50,904 bases of DNA from an uncultured Clostridiaceae bacterium (GCA_964642045.1 CAZXLZ010000001.1:1-50904), one strand, 5' to 3'. Positions 16,170 to 19,255 are shown, counted from the stretch's first letter. Notes: a model not told the origin generated them from the letters alone. Numbers and translations are program-made.

Positions 16170-17489
16170 CTATTTTAAATAATTCATCTTTTCTCTTATG
16201 ACCTTAATATTTTCCAAACTTCTTTTTGCATACATCTCATATTTTAACTTTTTGTCCTTAATCCTTGTATCTAGTCCTCTAATTATTCCAAAATTTGCAT
16301 TCATTGGCTGATAGTCCTTATTTTCTGTTGATATATATTTAGAAAGTGCTCCCATAATGCTTAAATCTTCTAGTTTTAATATATCATTATTTTCTTTTGC
16401 TATTATGTCTAGAGCAACTATCATTCCTGACATAGCCGATTCAACATATCCTTCTACTCCTGATATCTGTCCTGCAAAATATATATTATCATTACTTTTT
16501 AAACTAAAATTACTATTTAGAAGCTTTGAGCCATTTATATATGTATTCCTATGCATAACACCATACCTTAAAAACACTGCATTTTCAAGTCCGGGTATCA
16601 TTCTAAATATCCTTTCTTGCTCACCAAATTTAAGACTCGTTTGAAATCCAACCATATTATATGCCTTGCTTCTACTATCTTCTGCTCTTAACTGAACAAC
16701 TGCATAACTTCTTTTTCCATCTATTTCTAACCCAACGGGCTTTAACATTCCAAAAGTTAAAGTTTTTTCTCCTCTTTTTGCCATTTCTTCTACTGGCATG
16801 CAGCCCTCAAATAACAACAGTTTATCAAAGTCATGTCTACTTGCACTTTCAGCTGAAATTAAGGCATTATAGAAATTAAGGTATTCTTCTTTATTAAGCG
16901 GAAGATTTAAATAATCTCCCTCACCTATTTTTCCATATCTATCCATTCTATATGCAACGCTCATATTTATACTATCTGCATCTATAATAGGAGCTGCTGC
17001 ATCATAGAAATATAGATTATCTTCATTAAAAAAATTTTTTAAGCTTTCTGAAAATTCATCTGATGTAAGCGGACCTGTTGCTATAACTGTCTTCTCACCA
17101 GTAGTTATAAAGCTAGATATATCTGTAATTTCTTCATGTATAACCTCTATATTATCCATTCTATTTATTTTTTCTGTTATATATAAAGAAAATTTTTCTC
17201 TATCTACTGCTAAAGCTTGTCCTGCTTCTACTCTTGCATAATCTGCTGCCTCTAGCATTAAACTCCCAAAATATCTCATTTCTTCTTTTAAAAGCCCACA
17301 TGCATTAGTAATACTTTCAGATTTTAGAGAATTACTGCATACAAGTTCTCCAAAATTATCACTTTTATGTGCAGCGCTTTTTTTATATGGCTTCATATCA
17401 TATAACTTTACATTTATTCCATTTCTAGCAAGTATATATGCACATTCACACCCTGCAAGCCCCGCACCAATTACATTAACATTTATCAT
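16170..17489 (-). CDS. trmFO: Methylenetetrahydrofolate-tRNA-(uracil-5-)-methyltransferase
   Basis: VIGAGLAGCECA FAD motif, and a 439-aa TrmFO/Gid pattern throughout. Confidence 0.9.
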   Translation of the reverse strand: MINVNVIGAGLAGCECAYILARNGINVKLYDMKPYKKSAAHKSDNFGELVCSNSLKSESITNACGLLKEEMRYFGSLMLEAADYARVEAGQALAVDREKFSLYITEKINRMDNIEVIHEEITDISSFITTGEKTVIATGPLTSDEFSESLKNFFNEDNLYFYDAAAPIIDADSINMSVAYRMDRYGKIGEGDYLNLPLNKEEYLNFYNALISAESASRHDFDKLLLFEGCMPVEEMAKRGEKTLTFGMLKPVGLEIDGKRSYAVVQLRAEDSRSKAYNMVGFQTSLKFGEQERIFRMIPGLENAVFLRYGVMHRNTYINGSKLLNSNFSLKSNDNIYFAGQISGVEGYVESAMSGMIVALDIIAKENNDILKLEDLSIMGALSKYISTENKDYQPMNANFGIIRGLDTRIKDKKLKYEMYAKRSLENIKVIREKMNYLK

Positions 17490-17575: not shown

Positions 17576-17604
17576 TTGACATAATATGTTTTTTATGCTA
17601 TAAT
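17576..17604 (+). promoter_or_regulatory. Consensus promoter of cassette 1
   Basis: TTGACA (17576-17581), 17 nt, TGcTATAAT (-10 at 17599-17604). Confidence 0.7.
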
Positions 17605-17628
17605 ATTAGTTAAGTATTAATAATTTTA

Positions 17629-17672
17629 AATACGCATCAGTATGCATATTGTTTGTGTGCAATTGCGTATAA
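17629..17672 (+). promoter_or_regulatory. Conserved leader element, copy 1
   Basis: AATACGCATCAGTATG (17629-17644) is identical to 18041-18056. TGCGTATAA (17664-17672) is identical to 18079-18087. ATACGCAT-CAGT-ATGCATAT can form a local hairpin, or ATACGCA can pair with the distal TGCGTAT. Confidence 0.5.
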
Positions 17673-17695
17673 TAATTTTTGAAAGGAAAAGAAAA

Positions 17696-17908
17696 ATGAA
17701 AAAAATAATTACTTTTTTAGTATTGGCCATTCTCGCTTCAGTTCTGCTCACAGGATGCGAGCAAAACAAAGAAATTACGTTCAAGGAAAGCGATGAATCT
17801 TCATCCTGTCTTATAAAAGACAGATATGGAGAAAACAAGCCTGTTCCCATAAAAAATGGGGGCGCTATTGAAATTGACGACAATACAGTCGTCATTGACC
17901 TTGGCTAA
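17696..17908 (+). CDS. Small lipoprotein (70 aa)
   Basis: MKKIITFLVLAILASVLLTGC has a signal peptide and lipobox. G+C is visibly higher than in flanking DNA. Confidence 0.7.
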   Translation: MKKIITFLVLAILASVLLTGCEQNKEITFKESDESSSCLIKDRYGENKPVPIKNGGAIEIDDNTVVIDLG

Positions 17909-17912
17909 TTTT

Positions 17913-17945
17913 ATCCCACTTCTTTAATTAGAAGTGGGATTTTTA
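17913..17945 (+). terminator. Intrinsic terminator of cassette 1
   Basis: ATCCCACTTC-TTTAATTA-GAAGTGGGAT followed by TTTTT. Confidence 0.8.
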
Positions 17946-17988
17946 TTTATCATATATTTAAAAAATCACATTTTTATTTACATAATTA

Positions 17989-18018
17989 TTGACATTTTAC
18001 ATAATATTATGTTATAAT
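17989..18018 (+). promoter_or_regulatory. Consensus promoter of cassette 2
   Basis: TTGACA (17989-17994), 18 nt, TGtTATAAT (-10 at 18013-18018). Confidence 0.7.
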
Positions 18019-18040
18019 ATATATGTATTACCATATAACT

Positions 18041-18087
18041 AATACGCATCAGTATGTGTATTTTTAGTTTAATGCTAATGCGTATAA
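18041..18087 (+). promoter_or_regulatory. Conserved leader element, copy 2
   Basis: It has the same 16-nt and 9-nt blocks as copy 1. The local hairpin ATACGCAT-CAGT-ATGTGTAT is fully paired with one G-U. Confidence 0.5.
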
Positions 18088-18118
18088 AAATAAAAACTAT
18101 GTATAAATGGAGGTACTT

Positions 18119-18727
18119 ATGAACAACAAAGCTTCATATCTTGGATGGATAGTGGCAGTTATACTTGCTGCTATATTGGCAATTATGGTGTATATGCAGT
18201 ATTTTGGTGGACACACTATTGTCTGCAACTGCATGCAAAACAATCAAGATCAACTTCAGCAAAATCCTGCTCCTGCCCCTACTCCTACCACGACCACTAC
18301 CACGATCAAAGAGCTGCCTGATAAGGCATATAAGGAGATGAAGCAAAGTAGCATCTCCTATGAATGGAAAAATTCAAAAACGCTCGAAATTCGTTTTGAG
18401 CAGTATAAGAATCTTTCCACTGCTGATGGAAAAGATGTGGTATTCTTTCCAAATGAAGCTGAATACCAAAAGTTTATCAAGGACGTGAAAGACAATCCCG
18501 AGCTGTACAAGGAGTCTGATCCTGGTTATTACAGCAATACTCGGATTGTAAACTTGCTTGATGGAAAATTTCCAGAAATAGCCAGCTGGCAAATCCCATC
18601 TGGCAGCAATGTTCTCCTTATCACATTTAAGGAAGAACCAAGCGAGATCTTTTCATTGAAAAGTGCAACAGGCTACTGGCAAGGTCTTCACATTTACCTT
18701 GAGGAGGAGACCCAAGTAACCGAATAA
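18119..18727 (+). CDS. Membrane-anchored extracytoplasmic protein with Pro/Thr linker
   Basis: The ATG at 18119 is 7 nt after GGAGG. An N-terminal TM is followed by a NPAPAPTPTTTTTT linker and a roughly 130-aa unknown domain. A hand count of line 18241-18300 gives 30 of 60 G+C, against 18 of 60 in line 18781-18840. Confidence 0.7.
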   Translation: MNNKASYLGWIVAVILAAILAIMVYMQYFGGHTIVCNCMQNNQDQLQQNPAPAPTPTTTTTTIKELPDKAYKEMKQSSISYEWKNSKTLEIRFEQYKNLSTADGKDVVFFPNEAEYQKFIKDVKDNPELYKESDPGYYSNTRIVNLLDGKFPEIASWQIPSGSNVLLITFKEEPSEIFSLKSATGYWQGLHIYLEEETQVTE

Positions 18728-18738
18728 GAAAAGAAAAA

Positions 18739-18774
18739 ATATAACATAGCTAACAAGCTATGTTATATTTTTTA
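18739..18774. terminator. Bidirectional terminator between cassette 2 and the convergent 146-aa gene
   Basis: ATATAACATAGC-TAACAA-GCTATGTTATAT followed by TTTTTT. Confidence 0.7.
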
Positions 18775-19212
18775 TGTTATAACAGTTCTATCTCCATCTT
18801 GCATTTTAACGTGCATTATCTTCTCTATTTTTATATATGGTACTCTAGTTCCTTTTTGATAATCAGTAAACTTGTATTTTATAATCCCAACTACTTTTAC
18901 CCAAGTCTCTTCTTTAAAACTATCATACTCACCATCAAGAAGTATACCTACCATAGTTTTACCATCTGAAAGTACATAATCTCTTACAATATAACAGTTA
19001 TCATATTCATCATAATGCAAATATCCTGTAATAGATATTCTTAAATTTTCATATTTATCAAAATCTGTTGCTATACTTTCTACTTTTTTGGCATAAAAAT
19101 TAGTTGTCACATATACATCTATTTTATTTTTTTCATTTATATATAATATAGCAGTAATTGCTACAATTGCTGTAACTATTATTATACTCAAAATTATAAC
19201 TATTTTCTTCAT
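18772..19212 (-). CDS. Membrane-anchored hypothetical protein (146 aa)
   Basis: N-terminal TM MKKIVIILSIIIVTAIVAITAILYI. No family recognised. Confidence 0.6.
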   Translation of the reverse strand: MKKIVIILSIIIVTAIVAITAILYINEKNKIDVYVTTNFYAKKVESIATDFDKYENLRISITGYLHYDEYDNCYIVRDYVLSDGKTMVGILLDGEYDSFKEETWVKVVGIIKYKFTDYQKGTRVPYIKIEKIMHVKMQDGDRTVIT

Positions 19213-19226
19213 AAAATCACAAAAAA

Positions 19227-19255
19227 ATTATATCTTAATATTTAACATATGTCAA
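19227..19255 (-). promoter_or_regulatory. Consensus promoter giving a near-leaderless mRNA for the 146-aa gene
   Basis: Minus strand reads TTGACA (19255-19250), 17 nt, TATAAT (19232-19227). Only 14 nt separate the -10 from ATG 19212, and no SD is present. Confidence 0.6.

Follow-up and report, generated by a model that had tools for sequence, protein, structure and literature searches.

Tandem units for predicted cell-envelope proteins with a common promoter-plus-leader element and a candidate RNA stem-loop in an uncultured Clostridiaceae bacterium

The locus and its two units

The stretch of DNA analyzed here (the window) comprises 50,904 nucleotides of an uncultured Clostridiaceae bacterium (GCA_964642045.1, CAZXLZ010000001.1:1-50904), and is contig C1 of a metagenome-assembled genome (MAG) of 1.26 Mb, which has a GC content of 27.8% and is 81% complete (assembly G000). 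Between positions 17576 and 18774, the window contains two tandem units on the plus strand, each of which is made up of a perfect promoter, a leader with a conserved stem-loop, a gene for a small protein, and a terminator. The motif common to the two leaders is most likely a structure of the sense-strand RNA, rather than a DNA operator or a riboswitch, to judge from the comparison of related sequences, and the element is apparently a lineage-restricted leader RNA motif, undescribed, although of a familiar general kind.

The promoter of unit 1 (17576-17604, plus strand) consists of the TTGACA hexamer at 17576-17581, a 17-nt spacer, and TGc TATAAT, and that of unit 2 (17989-18018, plus strand) of TTGACA at 17989-17994, an 18-nt spacer, and TGt TATAAT. 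Both promoters are of the extended -10 type, and both have a score of 12/12. They are followed, at distances of 24 and 22 nt from the respective -10, by the 16-nt block AATACGCATCAGTATG (17629-17644 and 18041-18056, plus strand), whose only two exact matches in the whole 1.26-Mb assembly are the two in the window. The distal sequence TGCGTATAA is found 19 and 22 nt after the block, at 17664-17672 and 18079-18087 (plus strand). The stem-loop of unit 1 (17630-17670, plus strand) includes most of the 16-nt block together with the distal TGCGTAT, and is formed by an outer helix, P1 (17630-17636 with 17664-17670), and an inner helix, P2 (17640-17646 with 17654-17660). The minimum free energy (MFE) calculated by RNAfold for its core is -14.3 kcal/mol in the sense orientation vs. 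-7.6 kcal/mol in the antisense. In unit 2, the stem-loop (18042-18085, plus strand) is formed by P1 at 18042-18049 with 18078-18085 and P2 at 18051-18055 with 18072-18076, with core values of -12.4 (sense) vs. -11.3 kcal/mol (antisense).

The gene of unit 1 (17696-17908, plus strand) encodes a predicted lipoprotein of 70 amino acids (aa), which has a signal peptide with an LTGC lipobox and is a singleton orphan. The GC content at the third codon positions (GC3) of this gene is 0.37, and an intrinsic terminator at 17913-17940 (plus strand), with an 11-bp stem and a subsequent T-run, closes the unit. The gene of unit 2 (18119-18727, plus strand; GC3 0.42) encodes a membrane-anchored extracytoplasmic protein of 202 aa, with an N-terminal transmembrane helix, a Pro/Thr linker, and an alpha/beta domain, and is followed by a bidirectional terminator with an 18-bp stem (18734-18773), which is common to the convergent DUF1980_C gene (18772-19212, minus strand). 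The first-pass annotation of this sequence had described two units with matching parts, that is, a perfect extended -10 promoter, the 16-nt block, the distal repeat, a gene, and a terminator, and the coordinates of all these parts were confirmed here. Both of the pairings that it had proposed for the leaders are present in the RNAfold analysis, the hairpin of the proximal arm as well as the long-range alternative, ATACGCA with TGCGTAT.

The encoded proteins and their relatives

The lipobox of the 70-aa product (MKKIITFLVLAILASVLLTGC) is readable directly in the sequence and meets the bacterial lipoprotein pattern [LVI][ASTVI][GAS]C, and the matches to the lipoprotein-signal models of Pfam are weak and below the cut-offs. 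No homologues of this protein were found among 5.8 billion proteins. The linker of the 202-aa protein is PAPAPTPTTTTTT, its conserved alpha/beta domain spans approximately 130 aa, and the product is presumably located at the outer face of the membrane. Of the structure predictions that had been suggested for the two proteins, that of the 202-aa product was obtained with AlphaFold, with low confidence (mean predicted local distance difference test score of 60), and its best Foldseek match in the PDB had an E-value of 0.75, that is, no usable fold was recovered. A Pfam search with both proteins and eight other proteins encoded by cassettes of this type, which are described below, returned nothing above the cut-offs.

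A full HMMER pass over 1.84 billion representative sequences retrieved four relatives of the 202-aa protein, with identities of 27-45%, and one low-complexity match, and the word-indexed sequence and profile searches of 5.8 billion clusters added no further relatives. All four relatives are encoded at the same chromosomal site, adjoining trmFO on the opposite strand, and in the larger of the respective contigs, this site is flanked by holA-trmFO and, at its opposite end, by topA. In the window, trmFO (16170-17489, minus strand) lies on one side of the two units, with the DUF1980_C gene on the other, followed by CYTH, AAA_28, and topA, all on the minus strand, so that the two plus-strand genes are set against the direction of transcription of their neighbors. 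The closest representative genome with the same locus is that of Clostridia bacterium RGIG5057, from the roe deer rumen.

The loci of all four relatives carry the promoter TTGACA-N17-18-TGnTATAAT and a leader of approximately 85-105 nt with CGCAU...AUGYG...AUGCG. One of these loci, in a genome of the same genus (G004), also has two tandem units, the first of which contains a gene unrelated to the lipoprotein gene of the window. The five other representatives of the genus have different genes upstream of trmFO. No regulator gene was found in or beside any of the five loci.

Upstream of trmFO, the genus is variable (L035-L039), and the cassette is replaced there by prepilin-like genes, ABC exporters, a gene for a 742-aa protein, or others. 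Integron attC sites and single-stranded DNA hairpins of the IS200/IS605 type were considered and rejected, given that the hairpins of the terminators bear no relation to those of the leaders, and that none of the five loci was seen to contain a recombinase gene.

Structure and conservation of the leader

The leaders were compared in a set of ten sequences from approximately five species, made up of both leaders of the window, five leaders of the loci of the four relatives (to which the two units of G004 contribute two), and three leaders found elsewhere in the same genome, on other contigs. The structural alignment was not reproduced by MAFFT, and a hand alignment and our own counts were used instead of a covariance model; folding of the full leaders and cores on the sense and antisense strands was evaluated by the RNAfold MFE. 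In this set, P1 pairs xCGCAU(A) with the distal (U)AUGCGx' and is followed by a small internal loop and then by P2, in which the proximal AUGYG arm pairs with its downstream complement, forming a stem-loop of 33-49 nt overall. The nested P1/P2 fold was recovered in all ten cores and in six of the seven full leaders.

The start of CGCAU lies 25-29 nt from the -10 in all ten leaders, with P1 beginning approximately 17-21 nt from the predicted 5' end and ending 17-33 nt before the start codon. The rest of the leader sequence is not conserved among the orthologous loci, and the internal and apical loops vary (UCA/AAU, UU/UU, AA/AA, and so on). The element itself is real, and at least four other species have kept it at the orthologous loci. 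From the AUG of the proximal arm, a reading frame extends over 17642-17695 in unit 1 and 18054-18122 in unit 2, and is either in frame with the main start codon or, as in unit 2, ends at a UGA over the AUG.

The first-pass annotation had suggested that the element could be either a switchable leader or a three-half-site operator, and the long-range pairing that it listed as the alternative, ATACGCA with the distal TGCGTAT, proved to be the helix that covaries. Immediately outside the invariant CGCAU:AUGCG core, six of the ten leaders have an A:U pair, two have U:A, one has C:G, and one has G:C, and in the locus of the closest orthologue (L040), two outer pairs of P1 have changed from A:U/U:A to G:C/C:G, with the partners matching. 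Double-sided changes are present in 11 of the 19 pairs, and the covariation score is 0.80, in comparison with 0.26 in shuffled data, where none of 1000 shuffles reached 0.80. The proximal arm holds U (or G) at the covarying position, whatever the 5' arm has, and P1, rather than the small hairpin, is therefore the selected helix. The sense strand is also more stable than the antisense in all ten cores (sums of -147.2 vs. -102.4 kcal/mol), and the helices include 14 G:U pairs and one A:C, a count that is biased by the hand-drawn helices, unlike the strand test, which is unbiased.

In the proximal hairpin, the gap between CGCAU and AUGYG is either 4 or 6 nt, which results in a stem of 5 or 6 bp with a loop of 4 nt that is always NANU. 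Such variation in the gap fits a hairpin, but is not what would be expected of half-sites with a fixed spacing for a dimeric DNA-binding protein. The distances between the first and second palindromes are similarly diverse (25, 28, 33, and 36 bp).

Permissive E-value scanning of the window between 17400 and 18900 with Rfam 15 yielded no match in either leader, and there was no match at E<=0.05 in the four orthologous loci, in agreement with the initial impression that the leader is not a known riboswitch. No terminator-like site was found in the leaders by the terminator scan, nor any sequence complementary to the Shine-Dalgarno (SD) sequence. Where a U-run is present, it follows an A-rich spacer of 4-7 nt, which is not the arrangement of an intrinsic-terminator attenuator, and it is missing after the stem in unit 2 and in the leaders of contigs C3 and C20.

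Further copies in the genome

The assembly was scanned with a descriptor made up of CRCAU, the proximal arm AUGYR, and pairing of the distal arm through position -1, which recovered five elements, in comparison with approximately 0.5 in shuffled sequences. Four of the five are directly behind consensus promoters, that is, unit 2 of the window and the elements on contigs C3, C20, and C66, and unit 1 falls outside the descriptor only through one U:U mismatch. At least three further copies of the element thus precede unrelated orphan genes in this genome. The leaders of the same or a related type (CGCAU or CACAU) are located at C3 ~15642, C20 ~4199, and C66 ~444 (minus strand), and longer hairpins of the CACAU type occupy the same position behind consensus promoters at C69 ~1216, C17 ~966, and C30 ~9695 (minus strand). 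The stem-loops on these six contigs begin 17-20 nt from the predicted start site, and the genes that follow them are unrelated orphans with no Pfam match, which also run against housekeeping neighbors, such as tsaD, rpoA, and ffh. The protein encoded on C3 is missing from the six other representative genomes of the genus.

In wider searches, a scan of 61 relatives for a 15-mer with two mismatches gave matches at the control rate, always inside genes, and a strict 20-nt pattern applied to 401 genomes of the order identified only G000 and G004 as genuine. A GTDB-wide scan for the promoter plus CGCATNNNTATG gave 48 matches, nearly all of them due to chance (tRNA leaders, the ARG boxes of argG, and hisZ leaders), with the G004 contig as the only genuine one. 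There were no matches in a scan of JGI metagenomes, and what a scan at the family level added were matches to terminators of the opposite strand and to the 5' end of the RNase P RNA.

Two of the sequences that resemble the element deserve a separate description. The 5' end of the RNase P RNA in the family (L097, L099-L102) reads GUCGCGCAUAU...AUAUGUGAGGAAAGUCC, which mimics CGCAU/AUGYG and produces false positives in motif scans. In two MAGs of other Clostridia (L085 and L086), tandem palindromes of the CGCAT-N4-AT(G/T)C type are found 20-21 bp apart upstream of argG; these are ARG-box-like and unrelated to the leader element.

Base composition

The composition of the two genes was evaluated against a reference of 976 open reading frames (ORFs) with a mean GC content of 28.5% (standard deviation 3.7) and a mean GC3 of 17.2% (standard deviation 5.4). 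The gene of the 202-aa protein has a GC content of 41.1% and a GC3 of 42.1% (z of 3.4 and 4.6), which places it in the top 1% and 0.6% of the ORFs, respectively, and the lipoprotein gene has values of 38.1% and 37.1% (z of 2.6 and 3.7). The elevated GC content first noticed in sampled lines is thus borne out, and both genes are true compositional outliers on the scale of the genome, with GC3 z-values of 4.6 and 3.7. The foreign origin that had been drawn from it is not supported in the sense of a recent import, given that the diverged orthologues share the chromosomal site and all keep a GC content of 42-47% (GC3 0.40-0.45), in loci with 30-34% GC. As these orthologues are only 26-47% identical, are found at the same site, and are all GC-rich, the high GC content is a maintained trait of the family.

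The perfect promoter is common in the genome, with 53 TTGACA-N13-15-TGnTATAAT sites in 1.26 Mb, and the genes behind perfect promoters have a median GC3 of 0.253 vs. 0.163 (Mann-Whitney p 1.6e-10), with a Fisher odds ratio of 9.0 (p 6e-8) for a GC3 >= 0.30, and a median of 0.356 for the TTGACATAAT subtype of the promoter. Most of the genes behind such promoters are short orphans with leader hairpins, and the two units of the window are members of this class of GC-rich, strongly promoted orphan cassettes. Other examples of cassettes with perfect promoters are found at C56 ~3949 and C39 ~7299 on the plus strand, and C18 ~997, C4 ~29675, C21 ~14994, and C22 ~13766 on the minus strand. High expression was rejected as the cause of the GC-richness, given that the native genes with high expression (gap, eno, rpsM, rpsK, rpsC, and rpoA) have GC3 values of only 0.125-0.146.

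The in-frame CGG codon that had been reported in one of the genes is present in the 202-aa gene, at 18542-18544, where it encodes Arg, and is indeed rare in the genome (0.61 CGG per 1000 codons). A +1 shift at this position would reach a TAA after two codons, with the loss of the conserved C-terminal domain, and the CGG is therefore read in frame. This Arg is conserved in the closest orthologue (L040), where it is encoded by the same codon.

Possible roles of the leader

The locus may be understood as a pair of autonomous transcription units, in each of which a perfect extended -10 sigma-A promoter would drive a single gene for a small cell-envelope protein and would produce a 5' untranslated leader of approximately 85-95 nt. 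The element would represent one member of a small, lineage-restricted promoter-plus-leader family, found before orphan genes that, in this genus of Clostridia, evolve rapidly and are GC-rich in most cases. Its stem-loop may act post-transcriptionally, as a determinant of the stability or processing of the mRNA, or may, alternatively, provide the docking site of a dimeric factor specific to double-stranded RNA (dsRNA). The obvious candidate would be RNase III, because the duplex is nearly two-fold symmetric, with 5' CGCAU-nn-AUGCG facing the same sequence on the 3' strand; this enzyme is encoded on contig C19 (10502-10891). Either role would contribute to a high, coordinated expression of both genes, and the co-regulation of the two through a common leader, as suggested in the first-pass annotation, is plausible. 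We tentatively favor this combination of two autonomous units with an RNA stem-loop that acts post-transcriptionally or as a dsRNA-factor site, rather than a riboswitch or a duplex-DNA operator, as a proposal that falls a little short of an even chance, and the post-transcriptional action in particular is suggested by the near two-fold symmetry of the duplex, the conserved helix sequence, and the presence of RNase III in the genome.

The sites of RNase III in leaders, such as those of the phage T7 R1.1 type and of the rnc and pnp leaders, have a canonical duplex of approximately 20-22 bp, that is, about two turns of dsRNA. The present element resembles them in its irregular duplex, small symmetric internal loop, and near two-fold symmetry, but its predicted duplex (P1 plus P2) amounts to only 10-19 bp, below the canonical length. 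Stem-loops of the 5' untranslated region (5'-UTR) that stabilize mRNAs or direct their processing are found in Firmicutes, as in the leaders of ermC, aprE, and Lactobacillus slpA, and also in the 5' hairpin of ompA in E. coli. The units of the window are similar to genes with 5'-UTR stabilizers in their strong promoter, long leader with a stable stem-loop, good SD sequence, strong terminator, and cell-envelope products. They differ in the position of the hairpin, which is predicted to follow 17-21 unpaired nucleotides instead of being located at the very 5' end, as in a classical stabilizer, and in the conservation of the helix sequence (CGCAU/AUGCG), which a pure stabilizer would not need. 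The selective processing and stabilization of RNA by stem-loops has been described in Clostridium cellulolyticum (PMC4423207).

The short duplex and the unpaired 5' nucleotides both weigh against the post-transcriptional reading, as do a number of other points. The start site and the transcription of the leader are predictions, the sample is restricted to ten sequences from some five species, and the helices were drawn by hand, so that the pair counts lean towards structure. In the full leader of unit 2, the MFE prefers the proximal hairpin, and P2 is almost absent from L040. The conservation of sequence within the helices and the fixed distance to the promoter would also be expected of a DNA site.

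In the case of a duplex-DNA operator, the CGCAT-N4-ATGCG palindrome, at approximately +20 to +35, and a weaker downstream site would be occupied by a dimeric repressor that blocks elongation from the strong promoter. The near-perfect palindrome, its fixed position 25-29 nt from the -10, and arms that are conserved in sequence, with less conserved loops, would all be accounted for, and the ARG-box-like CGCAT/ATGCA palindromes that precede argG in L085 and L086, from other Clostridia, indicate that such sequences can be operators. The operator nevertheless appears improbable, since the spacing of its half-sites would be 4 or 6 nt in different copies, the second site would have no constant spacing or register (25, 28, 33, or 36 bp from center to center), there are 14 G:T mismatches to one A:C, the fold of the sense strand is the more stable in ten of ten cases, the covarying partners are 25-45 nt apart, and none of the five loci has a regulator gene in or beside it. 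The three-half-site operator of the first-pass annotation is unsupported on largely the same grounds. It is distinctly improbable that the element lacks any present function, as either a copied promoter-leader module or a palindromic selfish repeat with an incidental hairpin. Promoter-leader modules do recur before non-homologous genes in this genome, AT-rich leaders readily form A:U-rich helices, and the reuse of promoters has been documented in prokaryotes (PMC3575422), but the element has been kept where the proteins have diverged to 26-47% identity and the other leader sequence has not been conserved; it also shows compensatory changes, and keeps a fixed position even though the sequence has turned over. 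The likeness to these mobile promoters, which is the presence of a similar module before non-homologous genes in one genome, is limited to the consensus hexamers and the hairpin, so that the modules fall short of near-identity.

An RNA structure would also be involved if the leader were a regulatory switch or were targeted by a trans-acting regulator. The 5' arm would then pair either with the proximal arm, as a tetraloop hairpin, or with the distal arm, in the nested P1/P2 fold, and the choice between the two, with the resulting co-regulation of both genes, would fall to a translating ribosome, a small RNA, or a species-specific RNA-binding protein. Both pairings are possible in every leader, the loop of the hairpin is invariably NANU, and the copies within a genome are identical over 16-20 nt that include the loop (CAGU in the window, AAUU/AAAU in G004), with other copies differing, as might be expected if they were matched to one trans factor, although this identity would be explained equally well by local duplication of the module. 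The frame of the proximal-arm AUG reaches the main start codon in seven of the ten leaders, in comparison with 1.4 of ten in shuffled sequences; in unit 2 and on C20 this frame ends in a UGA that overlaps the main AUG, as do the frames of the distal-arm AUG in L040 and L090. The upstream AUGs, however, have no SD sequence, and the AUG-specific excess is marginal, given that 38% of the positions are already open in a pseudo-start control. Translational attenuators of the ermC type have four mutually complementary leader segments, and the present leaders resemble them in having four such segments and, in several copies, an upstream AUG frame that extends to the main start; they differ from these attenuators in that the SD sequence of the main gene lies outside all of the segments, the upstream AUG has no SD, and the genes are not for resistance. 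There is no expression platform, with no U-tract directly after the stem and no anti-SD sequence, the spacing of the SD ranges from 1 to 23 nt, and no complementary sequence was found elsewhere in the genome. A switch or trans-regulator target is thus an unlikely explanation, and a switch of the riboswitch type is not supported, given that the leader has no conserved unpaired nucleotides, no terminator, and no platform for the sequestration of the SD.

The units also invite comparison with phage morons, which are self-contained promoter-ORF-terminator units (PMC3594210). They share with morons their autonomy, a composition that differs from that of the neighbors, and insertion against the direction of these neighbors. 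They differ in that they are flanked by trmFO, holA, and topA, with no prophage, occupy a position conserved across species, and have a common leader RNA. Phage and plasmid collections contained no match to the units, and the prophage context that characterizes a moron is lacking.

Returning to the post-transcriptional stem-loop, a broader, speculative extension of it, which we consider rather unlikely, is that the lineage keeps a class of orphan-gene cassettes with a perfect promoter, a CGCAU leader RNA at approximately +18, a coding body kept GC-rich in spite of the AT bias of the genome, and a strong terminator, whose mRNAs would be recognized by one dsRNA-binding factor or armored against AU-specific RNases, forming a coordinated, RNA-defined regulon of fast-evolving envelope and accessory proteins. 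If the element is a functional RNA, it would represent an undescribed, lineage-specific cis-element that links unrelated, fast-evolving orphan genes in the tiny genome of a gut or rumen Clostridia, and would hint at a mechanism by which genes with perfect promoters remain GC-rich over long periods in a genome with 28% GC. This bears on the expression of accessory and surface proteins in uncultured bacteria with small genomes, and on the selection of synonymous-site composition at the level of the mRNA. The promoter-leader module is, in addition, a compact candidate expression part for low-GC Firmicutes.

A third perfect promoter, TTGACA-17-TATAAT, is found on the minus strand at 19227-19255. 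The DUF1980_C gene starts approximately 14 nt beyond the end of this promoter, which suggests that the transcript of the gene may be near-leaderless.

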